The position numbers and the translations under genes are program-made. Positions 10,145-62,800 of a DNA stretch of 64,000 nucleotides are shown here, piece after piece. Location: the NCBI GenBank assembly GCA_041687695.1, contig JAWLBL010000019.1, positions 96,001-160,000 on the forward strand, given 5' to 3'. How positions within the stretch are numbered: the first letter of the stretch is position 1; each line of letters starts with the position of its first letter. The notes below the pieces were generated by a model that saw only the letters and a list, made by a program, of their open reading frames with translations, was not told where the DNA came from and searched no databases. The DNA is from Myxococcota bacterium (GTDB lineage: Bacteria > Myxococcota_A > UBA9042 > PHBI01 > JAWLBL01).

Positions 10145-10160
10145 TGGAACGCCCCTTGCT
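10145..10160 (+). promoter_or_regulatory. Sigma54-type -24/-12 promoter of comM-recA-ssb
   Basis: TGGAAC-N5-TTGCT matches TGGCAC-N5-TTGC spacing, 25 bp upstream of comM ATG; inverted GTGTCCCA/TGGGACAC repeats at ~10064-10103 resemble enhancer sites. Confidence 0.6.
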
Positions 10161-10185
10161 CTCGCCGTCGCCCGGGAGGTGCGAC

Positions 10186-11745
10186 ATGGCGGTAAAGGCA
10201 TCGGGAGTGGGGCTGGTCGGGATCGACGGCGTGCTCATCGAGGTGGAGATCGGCGCGCAGGACGGGCTGCCCGGACTGGACATCACGGGGTTGCCGGCGG
10301 CGAGCGTGCGCGAGGCGCGGTTTCGGGTGAAGTCGGCCTTCCGCCGCAGCGACTATCCGTGGCCCGAGGGGCGGCTCGTGGCGAACTTCGCGCCGGCGGA
10401 CCTGCCGAAGGCGGGGACGGCCTACGACCTGCCGCTGGCCATGGCGGTCCTCGCCTTCAGCCGCGAGTCGCTCCGCGCGCGCCTGGCCGACTTCGTCTTC
10501 TATGGCGAGCTGGCGCTCGACGGCAGCGTGCGTGAGGTGCCCGGCGCCGTGAACGCGGCGTTGGCCACGCGTGCCGGCGGGCGTCGCGCCCTGGTCGTGG
10601 GGCCCGGGAACGCCGACGAGGCCGCGGCCGTGCCGGGCATCGAGGTCTACGTCGCGGAGACCCTGTACGAGCTGGTCGAGGCCCTCGAGGGCCGAGCGTC
10701 GCTGCGGCGCGCCGAGCCGGTCTCCGAGGGCGAGGCGCGTCGGCCGACGCTGGATCTCGCCGACATCCGCGGACAAGCCAGGGCGCGGCGGGCGCTCGAG
10801 GTCGCCGCCGCGGGCGGGCACAATCTGCTGATGGTGGGCCCGCCGGGCTGCGGCAAGACGCTGCTGGCGCGGGCGATGGTCGGGATCCTGCCGCCGATGA
10901 GCCTCGAGGAGCGGCTCGAGGTCACGCGCATCCACAGCGTCAGCGGCCTGACGCGCGGCAGCCGCGGCCTCGCCAGCGTGCGGCCGTTTCGGGCGCCGCA
11001 CGCGACGGCCAGCTTCGCGGCCCTGGTCGGCGGCGGCAACCCGCCGCGCCCGGGCGAGCTGAGCCTGGCGCACCGGGGCGTCCTGTTCCTGGACGAGACC
11101 CCCGAGTTCAACCGCCTGGCGCTCGAGTCCCTGCGGGCGCCGCTCGAGGACCGCGCCGTCACCATCACCCGGGCGGCCCGCGCGGTGACCTTCCCGTCGG
11201 CCGTGTCGCTGGTCTGCGCCATGAACCCGTGTCCGTGCGGCCACAAGGACGACCCGACGCGGCCCTGCCGGTGCACGCGCGGGCAGGTCGAGGCCTACCG
11301 GTCGCGGCTCAGCGGGCCGCTGCTCGACCGCATGGACATCCAGGTCGCGCTCAGCCCCGTGCCGCCCGAGCTGTTGGCGCAGGCGACGCCGGGCGAGGCG
11401 TCGGAGCCGGTGCGGGAGCGGGTCATGGCGGCGCGCGAGCGGCAGCTGGCCCGGCGCGAGGAGGCCGGCGGGGCGGCGACCAACGCGGAGCTGGCGCCCG
11501 GCGCGCTCGAGCAGGTCGCCCCGCTCGGACGGGCCGAGCGCCGGCACCTCGCGAACGCCGCGCGGACGCTGGGGCTGACCGCGCGCAGCTGGCATCGGGT
11601 CATCAAGGTGGCCCGCACGGTCGCGGACCTCGAGGGGGCCGAGCGGGTGGACGCGCGGCACCTGTCGGAGGCGCTGACCTACCGGCTCTTCGAGCGCGAA
11701 GGGAGCGCGACCGCGCGGGGCGCCTTCGCGCCGCGCGGACGATGA
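10186..11745 (+). CDS. comM: ComM/YifB Mg-chelatase-like AAA+ ATPase
   Basis: [28 protein letters not shown], Walker [49 protein letters not shown]. Confidence 0.93.
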
Positions 11746-11837: not shown

Positions 11838-12416
11838 ATGAAGAAGGGCAGCAACCTCGACAAGCTCAAGGATCTCATGGGCATGGTCGACAAGAAGTTC
11901 GGCAAGGGGACCATCATGAACATGGACGATCAGGACAGCGCCAAGGTGAAGGTGTTCTCGACGGGCTCGCTGGGCCTCGACGCGGCGCTGGGCGTGGGCG
12001 GCCTGCCGGTCGGGCGCGTCATCGAGATCTACGGGCCCGAGTCCTCGGGCAAGACGACCCTGTGCCTGCACGCGGTCGCCGAGGTGCAGCGCGCGGGCGG
12101 GACCGCGGCGATCATCGACGCCGAGCACGCCCTGGATCTGTCGTACGCCGCGTCCCTGGGCGTGGACACCTCGCGCATGCTCGTCAGCCAGCCCGACTGC
12201 GGCGAGCAGGCGCTCGAGATCGCCGAGATGCTGACCCGCAGCGACGAGATCGACCTCGTGGTCGTGGACTCCGTGGCCGCCCTGACGCCTCGCGCCGAGA
12301 TCGAAGGCGAGATGGGCGACAGCCACGTCGGCCTGCAGGCCCGCCTGATGAGCCAGGCCCTGCGCAAGCTGACCGGCTCGGCCAGCAAGCACGGGACGAC
12401 CGTCATCTTCATCAAC
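11838..12416 (+). pseudogene. recA: recA 5' fragment (codons 1-193), interrupted by prophage
   Basis: [71 protein letters not shown]; RecA similarity stops abruptly after ATCAAC at 12416. Confidence 0.97.
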
Positions 12417-12437
12417 GAAAACCGTGGGTCTGGAAGA
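12411..12437. other. Left att junction (core ATCAAC + phage arm gaaaACCGTgggtcTGGAAGA)
   Basis: Phage arm is an imperfect inverted repeat of the arm at 47698-47716. Confidence 0.9.
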
Positions 12438-42008: not shown

Positions 42009-42335
42009 ATGACCGAGACCACGAAGAGGCACCCGCACGCGAAGATCGTCGCCGCCATCATCGCCGCCTTGGTGGCGATCGGCGGCGGGGTCTACGGGCT
42101 GGGCGAGACCGAAGGCGTGACCACGGTGACGACCGCGACCGTGCAGGGCCTGGACGCCCGGGTCGCGGCCAACACGGTGGCGATCGCCGAGATCCGTGTC
42201 CAACAGGAGGCGGCCAACCAGGTGCTCGTTCGGCTGGACCGGACGATCGAACGCCTGGACGTGACGCTGGCCGAACTCGCCCGCGTCGTCGCCCGCATGG
42301 AGGGGCGCGACGCCATCCTGGGCACGAGCAAGTGA
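42009..42335 (+). CDS. Membrane-anchored coiled-coil protein (i-spanin- or holin-like)
   Basis: RBS GGAGG; single N-terminal TM plus heptad coiled coil. Confidence 0.5.
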   Translation: MTETTKRHPHAKIVAAIIAALVAIGGGVYGLGETEGVTTVTTATVQGLDARVAANTVAIAEIRVQQEAANQVLVRLDRTIERLDVTLAELARVVARMEGRDAILGTSK

Positions 42336-42685
42336 AGCGGGTCCTGTTCGCGGCGCTGCTGGCCGGCTGTTCGGTCGACCTGCAGCGCCGGCCTGACCAG
42401 TTCCCCCCGCTCGAGCTGGGCGCCGGGCCATGCACGGTGACGATCGCGTCCGAACACGCGACCGTCACCATCCACCTGGGCGACGTGTCCGCGCTGGTCG
42501 TCAGAGAGGCGACGGTCCGAGCCCTCAAGGGGCTGGCCGGTCAGGGCCTACAGGTCACGCCGATGATGATCGCACTCGTCGAGGGGCTCACGATTGCCGG
42601 GGTCGACGAGGGGCTCTGCCGGGTCCTCGACAAGGCCCGCAGCCATCTCAACGGCCGACTGGACCTGCTGGTCGAACGACGCTGA
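42332..42685 (+). CDS. Lipoprotein (o-spanin-like position)
   Basis: MKRVLFAALLAGC lipobox; GTGA overlap with upstream gene. Confidence 0.55.
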   Translation: MKRVLFAALLAGCSVDLQRRPDQFPPLELGAGPCTVTIASEHATVTIHLGDVSALVVREATVRALKGLAGQGLQVTPMMIALVEGLTIAGVDEGLCRVLDKARSHLNGRLDLLVERR

Positions 42686-42781
42686 CGCGGGCTCGACGCT
42701 TCCCGCTTGCTCGCGACTAGCGTGTTCCTCTTGAGACCGTTTCCCTAGCGGCCCGCCACAGAGCCTTGCAGGCACAGGGCC

Positions 42782-42939
42782 TAGTGGTCGGAATGGGGAA
42801 TTCTGCAACTTCTTGGGTTGACGGCGGCCCATCTAGCCGCCATCGTTGTAAGCCTCCAACGACGACGCGTTCGGCGAAACGAGCCCTCCGGGGGGAGGGG
42901 CGTGCCGACCTCGTTACCGCCTCCGGCCCCAGTGGCCGA
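42782..42939 (+). repeat. ~155-bp diverged copy of host nrdJ upstream region (59447-59601)
   Basis: 51-bp identity 42857-42907 = 59522-59572, with colinear similarity on both sides. Confidence 0.9.
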
Positions 42940-43470
42940 AGCGCGGCGACGTGTGTTGACCCGTAAGCCTCCCCCACAGCAGGTTCCAGCCAACACACGA
43001 ACAGTCCGTCACGGCACGCTTCCCGTTCTGACACGGGGAGGGCAGCACATGCCCGGGCGTAGGTGCTCGGGCCTGACGACGGAAACGGAGCAGTGCTCCG
43101 TAGCCTCGGTCAGGAGAAGCCACCTCGCCCGAACCAGGGCTGGGTTGCGTTCCGGCAGGTGCGAACCAAGACCAGGAGACAGAGAACGAACAAGGGGCTG
43201 CAACGCAGCCAAGCTACGAAGCAGCCCCGTGAAGACCTAGACCAACCAAAAAATCACCAGAGCTTGCTGGCAACTGCTCAGCGCGCTGGCCGGCGCGCCG
43301 CAGGTTGGCAACCAGGCGTGCGAACAACTCTGTCCAAGGCGTTCGTAGGTCCCGGTCGAGTAGATGTCAAGCGGGCTTGCTGCAACCCAGAGACCTGGGG
43401 GGTCGGCTGCGTGGGCGTTCCACCGTAGCTGCACCGGTTTCCCGGGTACTGCAGGCCACCTGCAGTACGC
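42850..43470 (+). ncRNA. Candidate large structured non-coding RNA or long leader (strand inferred)
   Basis: No convincing ORF; many nested local and long-range inverted repeats with A-rich linkers. Confidence 0.4.
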
Positions 43471-43501
43471 CTCCGTGCGTTCCGCACAAAGGCATCAAGC
43501 C

Positions 43502-43588
43502 ATGGTCGAGTTCCTGTTCGGCATCATCCTCGGCATCATCGCTCGCGACGTGTGGCCCCGTGGCACCCGTCCGCCGGCGAAGAAGTAG
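43502..43588 (+). CDS. 28-aa hydrophobic peptide
   Basis: MVEFLFGIILGIIARDVWPRGTRPPAKK; followed by strong hairpin. Confidence 0.35.
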   Translation: MVEFLFGIILGIIARDVWPRGTRPPAKK

Positions 43589-43609
43589 CAGGGGAGCCTG
43601 ATCGCGCGG

Positions 43610-43640
43610 CGGGTTCACGGGGAACGGTCCCGTGAACCCG
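43610..43640. terminator. 12-bp stem hairpin between convergent genes
   Basis: CGGGTTCACGGG / CCCGTGAACCCG perfect inverted repeat. Confidence 0.55.
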
Positions 43641-43659
43641 ACCGTAACCTCACAGGCGC

Positions 43660-43971
43660 TCAGCCGCCCCCGACGCGGGTCCCGCCGCCCTCGTAGCCGT
43701 TGCCGACGCCGGTCCCGTTTGCAGCGAAGCCGTTGCCGACGGTGCCTTCGTACCCGACGGTCCCCTTATAGCGGCCGTCGTCGTCGTAGCCGCCTCCAAT
43801 CTCGGTTTCCTTCGCGGCGACCGTGAAGCCACCTCGCTCGACGCCGTTGTCGGCGGAGGCGGTGAAGCCGCCGGTGGTTCCGCTGCTGTCGTGGGAGGTG
43901 ATCAGGAAGCCACCACCCGAGTAGCCGCCGGTGGCCAGAAGGGTCGCAGCCGCGATGATGATGAGCTTCAT
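43660..43971 (-). CDS. Small secreted Gly-rich protein
   Basis: RBS GAGG; signal MKLIIIAAATLLA; Gly/Tyr-rich mature part. Confidence 0.55.
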   Translation of the reverse strand: MKLIIIAAATLLATGGYSGGGFLITSHDSSGTTGGFTASADNGVERGGFTVAAKETEIGGGYDDDGRYKGTVGYEGTVGNGFAANGTGVGNGYEGGGTRVGGG

Positions 43972-44063
43972 GGGAGCCTCTGTGGTAGGTGCCGGTAACC
44001 CGCAGACGGGCAACCGTTCCACAGAATTCCAGGGAGCTCGTGCTAAGTGCAACGCTTCGGTCG

Positions 44064-44780
44064 TCAGCTGCCCTTGGAACGGTCAATCTTTGCCTGGAGT
44101 GTCGCCCTGCGCTCTCGGCTCCGAGCGGGCTGCACGTAGAAGAACTCCAAGAGGTCATCGAGGACTTGGAGCATGAGCTGAGCCTCGTTCTCTTCGATGT
44201 CGAGGATCTCACCTGTCACGCCGTCGGCCTTCAGGTGAACCGCGATGTTGCCCAGCTGCCGGACGTGGTCCAGTTCCTCGTGGAGGTGCGCCGGGAACCG
44301 CTGTTCGGCGAGCTTCAGGAGCCCGGCAAGGTTGGTCCGAGGCGAGGCGCTGGTGGCCTCGAGCAGGATGGCTTCCATGCACCGGCGGGAGAGCGCCGCC
44401 GAGGCCCGAGGGCTGATGTCGAGGATGGCCCAAGCCTCGCGCCAGTCCTTCGCGATCCCCTCGGGCACGGCCGGGTCTGGGGCGCGAGAGCGGAAGCGGG
44501 GATAGATGACCTGGTCAGGCCAGGGAGTACCGGAAGCGAGACCGATGTCGGCTCCGATGACCAGGATCGGGAAGTCACAGACTGGACATAGGAATCCGAC
44601 GAGCGCCCACTCGCTCCGGCCTCGACTGCAGACCCAGTGAAAGGTCAGCGGAACCCACTCGCTCTCCTGCTGCCAGCTCTGGCCACCACGGACGCGCATG
44701 GGCTCGCCCAGGTTGACCTTCTCTTGACAGTGTGGACAGGTCACCCGCGAGCCCTGATAGTAGACGTTCTCGTCGTTCAT
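44064..44780 (-). CDS. DUF4145-like (HEPN-related) protein with Zn-ribbon, copy 1
   Basis: CPHC...CPVC; DWREAWAILDISPRASAALSRRCME; VRQLGNIAVH (R-x4-6-H-like). Confidence 0.75.
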   Translation of the reverse strand: MNDENVYYQGSRVTCPHCQEKVNLGEPMRVRGGQSWQQESEWVPLTFHWVCSRGRSEWALVGFLCPVCDFPILVIGADIGLASGTPWPDQVIYPRFRSRAPDPAVPEGIAKDWREAWAILDISPRASAALSRRCMEAILLEATSASPRTNLAGLLKLAEQRFPAHLHEELDHVRQLGNIAVHLKADGVTGEILDIEENEAQLMLQVLDDLLEFFYVQPARSRERRATLQAKIDRSKGS

Positions 44781-44944: not shown

Positions 44945-45319
44945 TTGACAGGGTGGGATCTCGCGATCCTCATCAGAGCTATGAGACCTACCCACGACGT
45001 CCCTGCATCCGTGCTCGAGCTGATGGCCCAGCAGACGAGCTGGACCTGGTGCATCGAGGTCCTGACCGGATGGCTCAACAGGACCAAGCGCTGCTACACG
45101 GTCTACGACGTATACTGCTTCCTGGTCGAGCACAGGCCCGGTGAGGCGGTCGACTACGACTACATCGCCCGTCGCCTCAGCCAGAGCAGTACGCCCGGCA
45201 CCTACTACTGGGTGGCCTTCGGTCCCGACCATGAGTCGGCTCGGCAGTACTACGAGGCCCTGCGTGGGCGTCTGTCGCTGGCCGAGGTCGACGGAGGCGA
45301 GCTGTCGCTGACGAACTAG
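44945..45319 (+). CDS. Hypothetical protein
   Basis: ORF between the two DUF4145-like paralogues, on the opposite strand; start uncertain. Confidence 0.45.
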   Translation: MTGWDLAILIRAMRPTHDVPASVLELMAQQTSWTWCIEVLTGWLNRTKRCYTVYDVYCFLVEHRPGEAVDYDYIARRLSQSSTPGTYYWVAFGPDHESARQYYEALRGRLSLAEVDGGELSLTN

Positions 45320-46017
45320 GTAGCCTTCGAGGTCTTGGCCTTCAGGGCAGCTTGCCGCTGAGCACGCTTGGCCGGCTGGACGTAGTAGAAGTCCAGCAAC
45401 TCATCCACGATGGTGAGCAGCGCCTCGGCCTCGTCCTGGTTGATCTCCATGATGGATCCCGTCGTGGAGTCCGACTTGAGATGGACTGCGATGTTGCCCA
45501 TCTTCCGAACCTCGTCGAGGTGCTGTTCGAGGTCTGACGGCAGCGTGGGCCCGACGCTGGTGATCATGTCGACCAGCCGAGTCTTCGGGTTCTGCTTGCC
45601 AGCGTCAACGAGGGTCGCCTCGATGCAGCGACGCGAGAGCGCCGCCGAGGCCCGTGGGCTCAGGTCGAGGATCGCCCATGCCTCCTGCCAGTCCTTGGCG
45701 ATGTCGGCAGGTACGACTGGGTCTGGCGCGCGGACTCGAGCGGCAGGGTGGACGATCCGTTCGTCAAGGACTTTCCCACCTGTGATGTCGTTTTGCACGG
45801 TTCTCAGGACGAGCACGAGTTGATCGCAGACTGGGCAGACGTAACCCCTTAGTTCTTGACGCTGCTGGCTTCTGTTCCGTTGCCAGGTGAGGAACAAGGA
45901 CACGAGGGTCTGTCGGTCGCGGTCGTCGAGCGCAAAAACCTGTGTGTATTCGGGTAGGTTGATGGGCTGCTCGCAGTGGGGGCAGGTAACCCGGGCCTTC
46001 GGCTCGTAGCTCGTCAT
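45316..46017 (-). CDS. DUF4145-like (HEPN-related) protein with Zn-ribbon, copy 2
   Basis: RBS AGGAGAGG; CPHC...CPVC; DWQEAWAILDLSPRASAALSRRCIE; VRKMGNIAVH. Confidence 0.75.
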   Translation of the reverse strand: MTSYEPKARVTCPHCEQPINLPEYTQVFALDDRDRQTLVSLFLTWQRNRSQQRQELRGYVCPVCDQLVLVLRTVQNDITGGKVLDERIVHPAARVRAPDPVVPADIAKDWQEAWAILDLSPRASAALSRRCIEATLVDAGKQNPKTRLVDMITSVGPTLPSDLEQHLDEVRKMGNIAVHLKSDSTTGSIMEINQDEAEALLTIVDELLDFYYVQPAKRAQRQAALKAKTSKAT

Positions 46018-46139
46018 GTTCCTCTCCTAGGGGGCCAGAGCTTAGCGGACCCTCAAGGATCCGCAACGTCGTTCGGGACGGACGAACCTTGATCGGGTCT
46101 GTCGTCTTCCGCTACTCAGAGCTGAGCGGAGGAACGCCA

Positions 46140-47747
46140 ATGACCGAGCCCACGCAATCGACTGCGCGACGAGCTGTCATCTACGCCCGTGTCTCGAGCC
46201 AGGGGCAGCGGGACCGCCAGACCATCGAGTCCCAGCTCCGGGTCTTGCCCGAGTTCGTCGAGTCCCGGGGGTGGGAGCTGGTCAGGCCCACCGACACCTA
46301 TATAGACGATGGGTTCTCGGCCAAGGCCGGGGGACTCGACGACCTCAAGGGCCGGGCCCAGCTGCTCTCGGATGCCGAGGCGGGCCTCTTCGACCTGGTG
46401 GCGGTGGTCGACCAAGACCGGCTCACCCGATCGGAGGACTTGGTCGAGCGCGGCTACATACTGGGTTCGCTCCAGCGGGCTCAGATCCAGATCGCGGTTC
46501 AGTCCACCGGCCAGGTGCTCGACCTCTCGAGTTCCGAGGGCGACCTGCACGCCAGCCTCCAGGGGTTCTTCAGCGCCGAGGAGAACCGCAAGCGTCGGAA
46601 GCGAACTCTCGATGGCAAGCAGACCGCGATCAAGCGTGGCCGTAAGCCCTCCGGCCCAACCCCCTACGGCTACAACTACGATCGAACCACCGGTACCTGG
46701 ACCATCGACCAGGACCAGGGTGCGATCGTACGCGAGCTCTTCGAACGGGTCGCTGGCGGCGAGTCCTGCCACAGCCTTGCCAGGGAGCTGAACGAGCGAG
46801 GGGTCCCTCGCCCCAGGAGCGGCGCCTGGCAGCAGGCGCGGGTCAACCAGATCGTCCGCCAGCGCGCCTACATCGGGACCTACACGGCCGACAAGAAGAG
46901 GAACCTGACCATCGAGGTCCCGAGGATCGTGAGCGACTGGCTGTTCGAGCAGGCCGAGATCGCCCTGCAGGCCAACCGGTTCCACCTCAACCCCAAGACC
47001 AACCACTACAACCTGGCCCAGGGGATCGGGGTCTGCGGGGTCTGCGGCCAGGACATCCTGCTTACGGGCAACAAGCTCAAGAAGCGGTACTACGTCTGCC
47101 GGTCCAAGAAGGGGCTGGGCAAGGACGTCGAGCGCTGCCCCAACCCGATGCGGCAGGTCGAGCCCACCGACGAGAAGATCTGGGCGCAGGTCCGCTACGT
47201 GCTCGAGCAGCCCGACCTCCTGGAGGGAGCGGTCCAGCTCCGGATCGATCGGGCCAACGAGACCGACTGGGAGGCCGAGCTCAAGGAGACCGAGTCCAAG
47301 CTGGCCGCCATCGATCGCCGGGCCCAGAACGTCCTCAACTCCTACATGAAGGGGTTGATCGCCGACGACGTCTACGAGCAGCACCTGGTGTCGACGCAGC
47401 GGGACCGAGAGGGGCTGGAGCGCCAGCGCGATCTGGCCAACCAGAACCTGCTGGCCGCCAAGAGGACCGAGCAGGAGACCCGTGCTCTTCGGGCGACCGT
47501 CGAGAAGCTCAAGCAGAACCTCGACACCGCGTCACCAGAAGAGCGCCAGAAGCTCGTCAGGATGCTGATCCCAGGCCGGGACGGGTACCGGATCACGTTC
47601 GAGCAGGACGGGACCCTGACCATCATGGGGATGGTGGATGCCGGGACACCCGCATCGAACAAGGCTGGATCAGGGGAAGGAGAGGGCGGCTCGGGTGTCT
47701 TCCACGATGACGGTGTATCAACCAGCTGCGACAGAAGATCGGGGTGA
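46140..47747 (+). CDS. Large serine recombinase (phage integrase)
   Basis: YARVSS catalytic Ser, DRLTRS, PYGY, recombinase domain, Zn-ribbon CGVCG...YYVC...C, coiled coil; ORF runs across the right att junction. Confidence 0.95.
47698..47722. other. Right att junction (phage arm TCTTCCAcgatgACGGTgt + core ATCAAC)
   Basis: Inverted-repeat partner of 12417-12437; recA coding resumes at the core. Confidence 0.9.
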
Positions 47748-48190
47748 TGTTCGGCAACCCCGAGACGACGACCGGGGGCAACGCCCTCAAGTTCTACTCG
47801 AGCGTCCGCCTGGACATCCGGCGCATCGGGGCGCTCAAGAACGGCGACCAGGCCATCGGCAACCGCACCCGGGTGAAGGTGGCCAAGAACAAGGTCGCGC
47901 CGCCGTTCCAGACCTGCGAGTTCGACATCGTCTACGGACGCGGGATCTGCCAGGCGGGCGAGCTGCTCGACATGGGCGTCGAGGTCGGCGTCATCGACAA
48001 GTCCGGCGCCTGGTACTCGTGGCGCGAGGGGCGCCTGGGCCAGGGGCGCGAGAAGGCGCGCGAGGCCCTGATGGCCGACGAGGCGCTGTTCCGGACCCTG
48101 CGCGCCGAGACGATGGCGCGCCGGCTGGGGCGGCCCGCGCCGGTGGTCGAGGTGGCGGGCGACGACGGCATCGAGGCGCAGGCCGCCTGA
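47717..48190 (+). pseudogene. recA: recA 3' fragment (resumes [18 protein letters not shown]...)
   Basis: [49 protein letters not shown]; in frame with the 5' half after excision. Confidence 0.97.
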
Positions 48191-59427: not shown

Positions 59428-59480
59428 CCATATATGGCGCAGCATGTAGTGTCCGGCATGGGTAGTGCACCAACATCTTG
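59428..59480. promoter_or_regulatory. NrdR-box-like palindromes upstream of nrdJ
   Basis: CCATATATGG (59428), CAGCATGTAG (59440), CAACATCTTG (59471); last two 31 bp apart; followed by TTGACG-N17-CATCTT. Confidence 0.6.
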
Positions 59481-59894
59481 GGTTGACGGCGGCCGAGCGA
59501 GTCGCCATCTTAGCAAGCCTTCAACGACGACGCGTTCGGCGAAACGAGCCCTCCGGGGGGAGGGGCGTGCCGGCCTCGTCCGCCTCCGGCTCCACGGCCG
59601 ACGAGCGCCTCGGTGCGCTCTCGGTGGGGGCCGACCCGCGAGCGCGACCGCCGCCCGTGGGCGCGCGGACCGTCGAGGGAGCCCAATCACGACTTTCGCC
59701 ACCGGCGACCTGCGCGCGGCCCCGGCCGGCGCTCTGACGCCTCGCGCCGAAGCGCCCCACCAGCCTCCGCGACATTCCAGTCATCGATTCCGACGCCCGC
59801 CGCCGCGCCCGGGCGTCTCGGCGCGAGCGCTGCCACCGGCCCTCGCGCACCCCACATCCGCCTTCGAACCCCGAGCCCCAGGAAGCGTGACCTC

Positions 59895-62800
59895 ATGAAG
59901 ATCGCCCGTCGCTACACCAAGAAAGGCCAGGATCCCTTCGCCCGCCTCGGCTTCACGACCCGCGCCTCGCGCATCACCAACCCCGACGGCAGCGTGGTCT
60001 TCGAGGCCCCGGAGGTGGTGGTCCCCGAGGGCTGGTCGCAGGTCGCGGTCGACGTGCTGGCGCAGAAGTACTTCCGCAAGGCCGGCGTCCCGGCGCGTCT
60101 GAAGGCGGTCGAGGAGGAGGGCGTGCCGGCCTGGCTGCAGCGCTCGGTGCCGGACGAGGCGGCCCTGGCCAAGCTCGACGAGGCCGAGCGGTCGACCAGC
60201 GAGCGCGACAGCCGGCAGGTCTTCGGGCGCCTGGCCGGCTGCTGGACCTACTGGGGCTGGCGGCACGGCTACTTCGCGACCGAGGAGGACGCGCGGGCGT
60301 TCCACGACGAGCTGTGCTTCATGCTGGCCAATCAGATGGTCGCGCCCAACTCGCCCCAGTGGTTCAACACGGGGCTGCACTGGGCCTACGGCATCGACGG
60401 CCCGGCGCAGGGCCACTGGTACGTCGACCCGAAGACGGGCGAGGCCAAGCCCAGCGAGACGGCCTACGCCCACCCGCAGCCGCACGCCTGCTTCATCCAG
60501 TCGGTGGGCGACGATCTCGTGAACGAGGGCGGCATCATGGACCTGTGGGTCCGCGAGGCGCGCCTGTTCAAGTACGGCTCGGGCACCGGGTCGAACTTCT
60601 CGCACCTGCGGGGCGAGGGCGAGCCCCTGTCGGGCGGCGGGCGCTCGAGCGGCCTGATGAGCTTCCTCAAAATAGGCGACCGCGCCGCCGGCGCCATCAA
60701 GTCGGGCGGCACCACGCGCCGCGCCGCCAAGATGGTGGTGCTCGACGTCGACCACCCGGACGTCGAGCAGTTCATCAACTGGAAGGTGCTCGAGGAGCAG
60801 AAGGTCGCGAGCCTGGTCCTGGGCTCGCGCCTGAACAACAAGCACCTCAACGCCATCCTGAAGGCCATCGGCGAGGCCAAGCGCCGCGGGATGAACGGCG
60901 AGTCCACCAAGGCCCGCAGCAACCCCGACCTGGCCAAGGCGCTGCGTGACGCGCGCGCCGCGGGCGTGCCCGACAACTACATCCACCGCGTGATGCAGCT
61001 GGGCGAGCAGGGCATCACCGAGGTCTACTTCCCCGAGTACGACACCAACTGGGACTCCGAGGCCTACTACACGGTCAGCGGCCAGAACTCGAACAACTCG
61101 GTCCGCGTCAACAACGCCTTCCTCGAGGCCGTCGAGCGCGGCGAGGACTGGACGCTGCGCCGCCGCACGGACGGCAAGGTCGCCAAGGTCGTCAAGGCGC
61201 GCAGCCTCTGGGAGGAGATCGCCTACGCCGCCTGGAGCTGCGCCGACCCCGGGCTGCAGTTCGACACCACCATCAACGACTGGCACACCTGCCCGAACGA
61301 CGGCCGCATCAACGCGTCCAACCCGTGCTCCGAGTACATGTTCCTCGACGACACGGCGTGCAACCTCGCCAGCGCGAACCTGATGAAGTTCCGCACCGAG
61401 GACGGCCGCTTCGACATCGAGAGCTTCGAGCACGCCTGCCGCCTGTGGACCGTCGTGCTCGAGATCTCGGTCCTGATGGCCCAGTTCCCGTCGCGCCGCA
61501 TCGCCGAGCTGAGCTACGAGTTCCGCACGCTGGGCCTGGGCTACGCCAACATCGGCACCCTGCTGATGGTCCAGGGCATCCCCTACGACAGCGAAGAGGC
61601 CCTGGCCGTCTGCGGCGCCATCAGCGCCATCATGACCGGCGTGTCGTACGCGACCAGCGCCGAGCTGGCCAAGGAGCTGGGGCCCTTCCCGGGCTACCAG
61701 CGCAACCGCGAGCCGATGCTGCGCGTCATCCGCAACCACCGCCGGGCCGCCTACAACGCCCCTCGCTCGGGCTACGAGGGCCTCAGCACGGCGCCCAAGG
61801 GCATCGACGGCGTCAAGGCCCCCGCCGATCTGCTGCAGGCCGCCAAGAAGGCCTGGGATCGGGCGCTCGAGCTGGGCGAAAAGCACGGCTACCGCAACGC
61901 CCAGGTCACGGTCATCGCCCCGACCGGCACCATCGGCCTGGTGATGGACTGCGACACGACCGGCATCGAGCCGGACTTCGCCCTGGTCAAGTTCAAGAAG
62001 CTGGCCGGCGGCGGCTACTTCAAGATCATCAACCAGTCGGTCCCCGAGGCGCTGGCCAACCTGGGCTACTCGCCCGAGCAGGTGCAGGCCATCATCACCT
62101 ACTGCGTGGGCACCAAGACCCTGGTCGGCGCCCCGCACGTCAACCGCGACGCCCTGGCCGCCCGGGGCTTTCCGGCCGAGGTGCTCGACCGCATCGAGCG
62201 CGAGCTCGGCCGCAGCTTCGAGCTGGGCTTCGCCTTCAACCGCTGGACGGTGGGCGACTCGGTCATCACCGATCGCCTGGGCGTCCCGGCGACCGAGCTC
62301 GACAAGCCCGGCTTCGATCTGCTGACCGCCCTGGGCTTTTCGGCCGACCAGGTCCGCGAGGCGAGCGACGTCATCTGCGGCCGCATGACGGTCGAGGGCG
62401 CGCCCTTCCTGCAGGCCAAGCACCTGCCGGTCTTCGACTGCGCCAACAAATGCGGCCGCTACGGCACGCGCTACATCCACCCCGAGGCGCACATCCGCAT
62501 GATGGCCGCCGCGCAGCCGTTCCTGTCGGGCGCCATCTCCAAGACCATCAACCTGCCCAACCACGCCACCGTCGAAGAGGTGCAGCAGGCCTACCTGCTC
62601 AGCTGGAAGCTGGGCGTCAAGGCCATCGCCCTGTACCGCGACGGCTCCAAGCTCTCGCAGCCGCTCAGCTCGTCGAGCGGCGAGTCGCTCGAGGATCTGC
62701 TGGCCGAGGTCGCCCCCGAGCCGGCGCCCCCGCCCTCGCCGGTCGAGCGCGCCGAGCGCATCGTCGTCAAGTACCTGGCCAAGCGCCGCAAGCTCCCCTA

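Follow-up and report, generated by a model that had tools for sequence, protein, structure and literature searches.

What occupies the long gene-free gap that follows the late genes of a prophage in an uncultured Myxococcota bacterium? We analyzed a 64,000-nucleotide (nt) stretch of the assembly GCA_041687695.1 (contig JAWLBL010000019.1, here C19:96001-160000), referred to below as the window and numbered from its first letter; the genome comprises 7.97 Mb at 73% GC. The host prophage spans ~35.3 kb (window ~12417-47722), and the element in question lies near its end. A sequence-only reading of this DNA had proposed a large noncoding RNA or ribozyme-like element at 42850-43470, possibly transcribed from an nrdJ-like promoter upstream. 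Prophage morons are independently transcribed promoter-gene-terminator cassettes that sit between phage modules, and a position between the lysis genes and the integration module fits such a region. Our tentative proposal is that the locus may be a plus-strand unit of the moron type, in which a promoter borrowed from the ribonucleotide reductase gene nrdJ and a terminator enclose a long structured leader and the ORF (open reading frame) of a small membrane peptide.

The gap is noncoding. The sequence-only reading had described it as the longest stretch of the late region without a credible ORF; the lack of coding signal holds, and its true span (42686-43501) is slightly wider than first drawn. 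In a frame plot of GC content at third codon positions (GC3), no frame within the gap reaches the 0.85 to 0.97 typical of the neighboring genes. Scanning 42686-43660 for ORFs of at least 12 codons with a GC3 of at least 0.75, taking only the first start per frame, returned just three, of 13, 23, and 27 codons. Two longer ORFs on the plus strand of the gap, of 140 and 121 amino acids (aa), have GC3 values of 0.67 and 0.65, respectively, and no codon-position pattern. None of 12 gap ORFs (65 to 140 aa) matched a Pfam family at an E value of 1 or below, and 11 of them had no PHROG match, the remaining one reaching an E value of 0.29. Against 1.84 billion protein representatives, the 121-aa ORF gave a single marginal, multi-stretch match of the low-complexity type (E value of 2.7e-4), and a 74-aa ORF gave none. 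No conserved protein-coding signature, which would have spoken against an RNA, was thus detected by GC3, Pfam, PHROG, or the large protein collection. No tRNA or tmRNA was found in the 64-kb window.

Into this noncoding stretch points a diverged copy of the promoter region of the host nrdJ gene and of the beginning of its 5' leader, lying in the same orientation as before nrdJ itself. A search with nhmmer extends the copy to 42765-42946 (E value of 1.4e-25) and finds just two copies in the 7.97 Mb. A 51-nt block of the copy (42857-42907) is 100% identical to the host; at 15% divergence, a run of this length has a chance of ~0.03 of arising by drift after allowing for positions (a rough estimate), and drift appears an unlikely source of it from the sequence comparison. 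The 17-nt promoter spacer has kept its length, with five substitutions and no insertion or deletion, and the host hexamers around it read TTGACG and CATCTT. The copy and its orientation, obtained by BLAST, nhmmer, and alignment, bear out that part of the earlier claim of an nrdJ-like promoter; that this promoter fires we infer from the likeness to nrdJ.

In the host, the copied promoter and leader are followed by a gene, and the gap could for this reason be read as a decayed or unrecognized gene, such as a phage-borne nrdJ remnant, or else as a site acting at the DNA level (origin, packaging, or recombination). The 121- and 140-aa plus-strand ORFs are open, and early and moron genes of the prophage have GC3 values of only ~0.75 to 0.8, so weak GC3 is not absolute proof. 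Nevertheless, the two ORFs have GC3 values of 0.65 and 0.67, lack a position pattern, and match no family. A search of the gap for an NrdJ remnant gave a best E value of 1.1 by blastx and, against the host untranslated region (UTR) and gene, 0.34 by blastn; tblastx of the gap against its own genome produced scores of at most 41 bits and no gene remnant. As for a DNA site, iteron-like repeat families are absent from the gap, and the terminase, with any pac or cos site, lies 20 kb away. We regard this reading as very unlikely.

The host counterpart of the copy is flanked by smpB on one side and, on the other, by a gene for a class II ribonucleotide reductase (Pfam Ribonuc_red_2_N, barrel, and TSCPD domains). 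The nrdJ start was placed at ATG 59895 by comparison with 10 readable orthologues, among which MKI-RR-T is conserved. The gene is held by 16 of the 17 other genomes of the order; the upstream comparison rests on 10 plus-oriented loci, six minus-oriented ones having been dropped. In the host and 7 of the 10 readable relatives, CATATAT[GC]G is followed by box-like repeats, which we take to be NrdR-type operators, and several relatives carry TTGACG(G) upstream of nrdJ; an nrdR gene is present in the genome. The nrdJ leader itself is not conserved, since BLAST against 16 loci of the order recovered only a 15- to 28-nt box region. Relatives in the order also have long nrdJ UTRs, of up to ~450 nt, whose sequences show no conservation. 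Folding of the host UTR (59512-59900) is no better than that of shuffles (z score of +0.81). A consensus structure of the two leader copies by RNAalifold (40 pairs, four one-sided changes, none broken) was set aside as circular, and pairing in trans between the phage RNA and the nrdJ UTR was no better than in shuffles (12 of 60 as good).

Downstream, the gap ends at a 28-codon ORF with a gene-like composition. Its codon-position GC is 0.61/0.46/0.89, compared with 0.63/0.70/0.63 for the in-frame sequence just upstream (43364-43501). The first 13-residue windows of the predicted peptide have a mean Kyte-Doolittle hydropathy of 2.5, as expected of the small hydrophobic peptides of type I toxins, and its sequence makes it a candidate small membrane peptide. 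No paralogue of the peptide occurs in the genome, and no relative was found among GenBank phages (best E value of 2). A Shine-Dalgarno-like AAAGG stands 9 nt before the ATG and can pair within a small hairpin whose GCCU arm belongs to a GCCUCC motif. Beyond the ORF, and before the stop of a convergent minus-strand gene (43660-44052), lies a strong hairpin (z scores of -4.48 on the plus and -4.96 on the minus strand, none of 200 shuffles as good in either case), which is probably a two-way terminator, albeit one lacking a U tract. The 28-codon ORF and this hairpin had been overlooked in the sequence-only reading. With them in place, a long structured mRNA leader becomes at least as likely as a free noncoding RNA or ribozyme.

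Under the moron-type proposal, transcription would begin near 42852, from a promoter region borrowed from, or shared with, host nrdJ. The resulting RNA would repeat the nrdJ leader over its first ~95 nt and fold into three hairpin-rich domains over the next ~550 nt. The RNA would then continue into the 28-codon ORF, whose ribosome-binding site could be held in the short hairpin, and would stop at the strong hairpin at 43606-43645, for a unit of ~790 nt; we infer this RNA end, and likewise the roles of leader and peptide. The structured leader may stabilize the RNA and limit translation of the peptide, a logic that would be shared with mRNAs for small hydrophobic (type I toxin-like) peptides and with other long-leader morons. 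Type I toxin mRNAs encode small hydrophobic peptides and are often carried by prophages, as with hok/sok or bsrG/SR4 of SPbeta. The present locus resembles them in a peptide of <30 aa with a hydrophobic head and basic tail, in a highly folded untranslated region with a ribosome-binding site that can be sequestered, and in a possible antisense transcript ending at a minus-strand hairpin and U6 near 43248. It differs in a leader several times longer, in the lack of homology to any known toxin family, and in a Shine-Dalgarno hairpin that is not significant alone.

Compared with morons, the element shows the expected placement between lysis and integration modules (spanin-like genes on one side, DUF4145 and integrase genes on the other), a GC content of 61 to 63% against 67 to 73% in the late genes, a candidate promoter in the correct orientation, a small accessory ORF, and a terminal hairpin of its own. 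Unlike in known morons, the promoter would be a diverged copy of a host housekeeping promoter, that of nrdJ, and ~650 nt of structured noncoding RNA would precede the 28-codon ORF.

The folding of the gap is real and beats shuffles. The core (43050-43480) and the longer segment around it are both more stable than shuffled sequences on the plus strand (Table 1), which is the outcome that the sequence-only reading had asked of an RNAfold-type z score. All seven arm pairs that it listed lie exactly where it put them, with CCAGG, the arm at 43134, additionally present at 43172 and 43312. The minimum free energy (MFE) fold of the core contains six of the seven; GACCTA 43234/TAGGTC 43346 is missing, and other pairings form there. 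The A-rich linkers that it described are also present: A amounts to 26 to 28% and T to 10 to 11% at 43100-43299, unpaired positions of the plus-strand fold are 41% A and 11% U, and the AT skew of 300-nt windows at 43000-43100 falls within the top 3 to 5% of genome windows, notable without being extreme.

Three domains make up the fold. Domain A is palindromic and therefore also forms on the minus strand (z score of -7.16 with 60 shuffles). Within domain B, a hairpin at 43194-43228 and a branched subdomain at 43260-43378 are joined by an A-rich linker that includes A6 (43248-43253); the domain's segment 43131-43400 has a z score of -2.63 on the plus strand (3 of 200 shuffles as good), its MFE and centroid structures agree, and its ensemble diversity is 25.9 against 66.8 ± 19.7 in shuffles (0 of 25 as low). 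Domain C is followed by the Shine-Dalgarno hairpin, and the segment that covers the end of the domain and this hairpin is more stable than all of its shuffles (Table 1). The z scores from our own runs of 20 to 60 shuffles scatter, with -3.6 and -4.8 obtained for one segment, and wherever a value from the folding tool was also available, that one is given preference. Two further sequence features recur in the gap. The 10-mer GTAAGCCTCC occurs only twice in the genome with both strands counted, at the putative transcription start and in the C-rich loop of the hairpin at 42950-42999, and a one-mismatch copy of it forms the arm that pairs with the Shine-Dalgarno sequence. The motif GCTGCAAC[G/C]CAG also occurs twice (43197 and 43379), each copy being complementary to 43140-43149, so that the resulting helices are mutually exclusive.

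How exceptional is this structure for the organism? Random 431-nt genome windows (n = 25) have a mean z score of -0.18 (standard deviation [SD], 1.9), and 1 of the 25 reaches the value of the core. Other low-GC3 gaps, of which we tested 29 out of 53 of at least 431 nt, on six contigs, have a mean of -2.46 (SD, 2.97), and 8 of the 29 have z scores of -3.3 or below. Noncoding DNA rich in hairpins is thus common in this genome; the structure of the gap is not exceptional for it, and the region does not stand out by its energy of folding alone. Four of the 29 gaps fall below -7 (for example, C2:106710-107250 and C2:51300-51900), and such strongly folding gaps may hold clusters of REPINs or real structured RNAs. 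The present gap resembles these hairpin-rich gaps in its GC-rich stems and comparable z scores and differs from them in having neither a tandem unit nor a second genome copy, and in forming helices over long distances, not one similar hairpin after another. A repeat of the repetitive extragenic palindrome (REP)/REPIN type or of the miniature inverted-repeat transposable element (MITE) type was considered and rejected, because BLAST and nhmmer return only the locus itself and the nrdJ-leader copy; the 43140/43382 inverted repeat, taken as a possible MITE, likewise has no other genome copies.

These controls also bear on a plainer explanation, that the gap is a hairpin-rich spacer with no specific RNA function, in which transcripts of the late (lysis) operon, and those of the minus-strand genes converging on it, would have their 3' untranslated tails and terminate, with the nrdJ piece a recombination scar. 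Just past the last late gene, 42686-42800 shows nothing terminator-like (z score of -0.65, with 53 of 200 shuffles as good), so late transcripts would enter the gap and meet the hairpin at 43054-43131 first. The strongest hairpins are palindromic and form on both strands, and the minus strand has a -17.3 kcal/mol hairpin followed by U6 at 43248-43253, in a genome where runs of six or more A or T number only 112 in 7.97 Mb; in the folding model, a minus-strand RNA could end near 43248. What a spacer leaves unexplained is the long-range closing helix and branching of domain B, the low ensemble diversity found on the plus strand only, the identical 51-nt block with its preserved promoter spacer, and the gene-like 28-codon ORF; nor, having no other genome copy, does the gap belong to a REP/REPIN family. 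We consider this explanation rather doubtful, though second in likelihood to the moron-type unit.

MFE z scores do not discriminate between strands, the minus strand being equal to the plus strand, with 14 versus 15 G-U pairs. Ensemble diversity (mean base-pair distance) does. On the plus strand, the core has a value of 39 against 114 ± 28 in shuffles, with 0 of 25 as low, whereas the minus strand has 83 against 110 ± 27, with 28% as low; domains B and C show the same plus-strand-only pattern. Together with the A-rich loops, this favors the plus strand for the RNA, if one exists.

A well-defined plus-strand fold, in which MFE and centroid structures nearly coincide, is also what a free-standing structured RNA of ~600 nt would show. 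Such an RNA, for example a regulator or decoy, would run from the nrdJ-like promoter to the perfect hairpin at 43446-43468, and the 28-codon ORF would be a separate gene. Its A-rich loops, the mutually exclusive helices offered by the GCTGCAAC[G/C]CAG motif, and a 10-mer confined to the gap, once in a large C-rich loop, are all consistent with this. Large prophage-associated RNAs do exist: two accounts (10.1101/2024.12.08.627333; PMC5737381) describe ROOL and GOLLD as large, ornate RNAs often found in prophages. The gap shares with them a length of several hundred nucleotides, many helices, and a prophage location. Those RNAs are, however, defined by wide conservation and covariation, whereas the gap sequence is an orphan in a different host phylum, with no Rfam family, no ROOL match, and no homologue in the collections searched from which covariation could be scored. 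The equal folding of the minus strand (z score of -3.82) weakens the case further, as does a z score that is ordinary for gaps of this genome. From the earlier proposal of a large noncoding RNA or ribozyme-like element there survive the noncoding character, folding beyond shuffles, the promoter copy, and the defined plus-strand fold; membership in a known family and any distinction by strand energy or by z score do not. A free RNA of this kind seems improbable to us.

A more far-reaching version can be imagined, in which a plus-strand RNA of 600 to 800 nt would imitate at its 5' end the first ~95 nt of the mRNA of nrdJ (a B12-dependent ribonucleotide reductase), the identical 51-nt block included, and be coregulated with nrdJ or compete for a factor acting on its leader. 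The downstream domains, with their C-rich loop motif confined to the gap, would then represent an orphan class of large phage RNA that is new and ties lysogeny to the host supply of deoxynucleoside triphosphates (dNTPs). The AgvB report (PMC4104026) describes a prophage-encoded anti-small RNA that acts by mimicry. In parallel, the prophage RNA proposed here would carry part of a host mRNA leader and could compete for whatever binds it; AgvB differs in being short and bound by Hfq, and what it mimics is a target site in an mRNA; leader competition at our locus is conjecture. We hold this version to be a long shot.

Relatives of the element were sought in known RNA families and in sequence collections. 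In Rfam 15, whose tested families include self-cleaving ribozymes, group I and II introns, riboswitches, 6S, tmRNA, and RNase P, nothing in the 64 kb reached the gathering score. At an E value of 10 or below, 42300-44000 has eight matches, none of which comes near its gathering score; within the gap, mir-B6 ranks highest (25.4 bits against a gathering score of 89), on both strands of hairpin A. GOLLD is included in Rfam. ROOL (RF03087; gathering score, 99.1 bits) has no match at an E value of 1 or below in the genome, control genomes being silent too, and group II D1-D4 (RF01998) has no match in the genome. The likeness to GOLLD and ROOL suggested by the sequence-only reading, for which it had proposed a search of the cmscan type, thus finds no support in these searches. 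No DNA homologue occurs in GenBank phages or in PLSDB plasmids. The family consists of the source genome only; in the genomes of the order (n = 18) and class (n = 107), BLAST matches are at most 57 nt long, and a 38-nt match on contig C7 of the genome falls within unrelated, GC-rich sequence. With a covariance model built from 43191-43380, the 107 class genomes yielded no hit but that segment itself, the next one falling in a coding region. A 23-nt leader pattern is absent from viral contigs (IMG/VR), a closing-helix pattern finds 16 viral loci, none of them similar, and a 19-nt leader pattern finds 32 JGI metagenome and 64 GTDB genome loci, mostly one Bradyrhizobium stretch, with none extending beyond 54 nt; we regard the hits of these pattern scans as due to chance.

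Several of these results, and others, weigh against a moron-type unit with a structured leader. No relatives were found in any collection searched, so neither conservation nor covariation is seen, and other gaps of the genome often fold as strongly. A leader of ~650 nt for a 28-codon ORF is extreme. A consensus scan calls no promoter in 42500-44100, the -10 hexamer of the putative promoter matches the consensus at only 3 of 6 positions, and the CCATATATGG palindrome, present ahead of nrdJ in the host and in 7 of the 10 readable relatives, is absent from the phage copy. Neither the nrdJ-like leader on the plus strand (42850-42950; z score of -0.27) nor the segment that follows it (42945-43053; z score of -0.30 when folded alone) is better than shuffles, and when a leader structure is predicted from one copy by itself, most of its pairs are lost in the second copy, whichever of the two is used (in one case, four pairs kept and nine broken). 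The Shine-Dalgarno hairpin is not significant alone (z score of -1.62, with 10 of 200 shuffles as good), and long-range pairing to the ribosome-binding site is matched by 89 of 100 shuffles.

Should the unit prove to be expressed, it would clearly exemplify how a temperate phage can put the promoter and mRNA leader of a host housekeeping gene, nrdJ, to use for an accessory RNA and peptide of its own. It would also be among the few noncoding features proposed for phages of Myxococcota and would offer a concrete way to study the sensing of replication or dNTP status by a prophage. At present, it is a single orphan sequence from an uncultured organism and a lead to revisit with related phages or transcriptomes.

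Table 1. Features of the gap, the adjoining ORF, the nrdJ region, and the prophage around them, in window coordinates
Feature	Position	Strand	Energy, statistics, or remarks
Copy (85% identity) of the host nrdJ promoter region plus ~95 nt from the start of the 5' leader	42782-42945	+	BLAST, alignment
Host counterpart, promoter region and start of the ~380-nt nrdJ 5' UTR	59447-59607	+	16.7 kb away
Putative promoter: TTGACG, 17-nt spacer, CATCGT	42818-42823, 42841-42846	+	Putative start near 42852
Gene-free gap, 816 nt	42686-43501	+	Bounded by the stop codon of 42332-42685 (last late gene, o-spanin-like lipoprotein) and the start of the 28-codon ORF
9-bp perfect hairpin CGTGTGTTG/CAACACACG	42950-42999	+	32-nt C-rich loop with second GTAAGCCTCC
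Folded core	43050-43480	+	-204.5 kcal/mol; z -3.33; 0/100 shuffles as good
Folded core	43050-43480	-	z -3.82; 0/100 shuffles as good
Longer folded segment	42850-43510	+	z -4.45; 0/20 shuffles as good
Domain A, 78-nt imperfect long hairpin	43054-43131	+	-46.6 kcal/mol; z -4.97; 0/200 shuffles as good
Domain B, ~265-nt multibranch	43134-43398	+	Closed by CAGG-CTGGGTTGCG / TGCAACCCAG-CCTG
Domain C, three hairpins	43398-43474	+	Includes perfect 10-bp stem 43446-43455/43459-43468
Segment over end of domain C and Shine-Dalgarno hairpin	43440-43515	+	z -3.64; 0/200 shuffles as good
Small hairpin, GCCU 43469-43472 / AGGC 43490-43493 of Shine-Dalgarno-like AAAGG	43469-43493	+	-13.2 kcal/mol
28-codon ORF	43502-43588	+	Hydrophobic N-terminal stretch and basic tail
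Strong hairpin	43606-43645	both	-39.4 kcal/mol; 12-bp perfect core 43610-43621/43629-43640
Early genes, including endonuclease and C5 methylase	first in gene order		
Terminase, capsid, tube, tape-measure, and further late genes	up to 42685	+	
Three minus-strand genes and one plus-strand accessory gene	after gap	- and +	Two encode DUF4145/phrog_1305 proteins
Large serine integrase	46089-47747		

The proteins encoded on either side of the gap are orphans themselves. The last two late genes overlap and look, from their sequences, like an inner- and outer-membrane spanin pair, which places the gap after the lysis genes: the 108-aa protein (42009-42335) combines a membrane helix at its N terminus with a coiled coil, and the 117-aa protein (42332-42685) has a lipobox (LLAGC) and a lipoprotein signal. 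No family of Pfam or PHROG includes either of them, and in a collection of 5.8 billion proteins the 117-aa protein matched only itself. In the same collection, a 330-aa neighbor has one relative, with 39% identity, on a 2.8-kb contig. The integrase has a relative in 1 of 400 other Myxococcota genomes, at 40% identity and with no common neighbors.

Beyond the terminal hairpin, the convergent gene at 43660-44052 (minus strand) encodes a Gly-rich, secreted-looking protein of 130 aa. The two DUF4145/phrog_1305 proteins (44064-44780 and 45316-46017, both on the minus strand) are paralogous and have Cys-pair N termini, and a 124-aa plus-strand ORF lies between their genes. The prophage splits a recA paralogue into parts at 11859-12425 and 47717-48115, which are 66% (N-terminal part, ending ...VIFIN-ENR) and 62% (C-terminal part) identical to an intact recA on contig C27. 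ATCAAC is common to the two prophage junctions (12411-12416 and 47717-47722), and clean excision would therefore rebuild the FINQLR motif of the paralogue. The serine integrase ORF extends 25 nt beyond the crossover into recA DNA, and a ComM-type Mg-chelatase/AAA gene (10156-11745) lies just upstream of the split paralogue.

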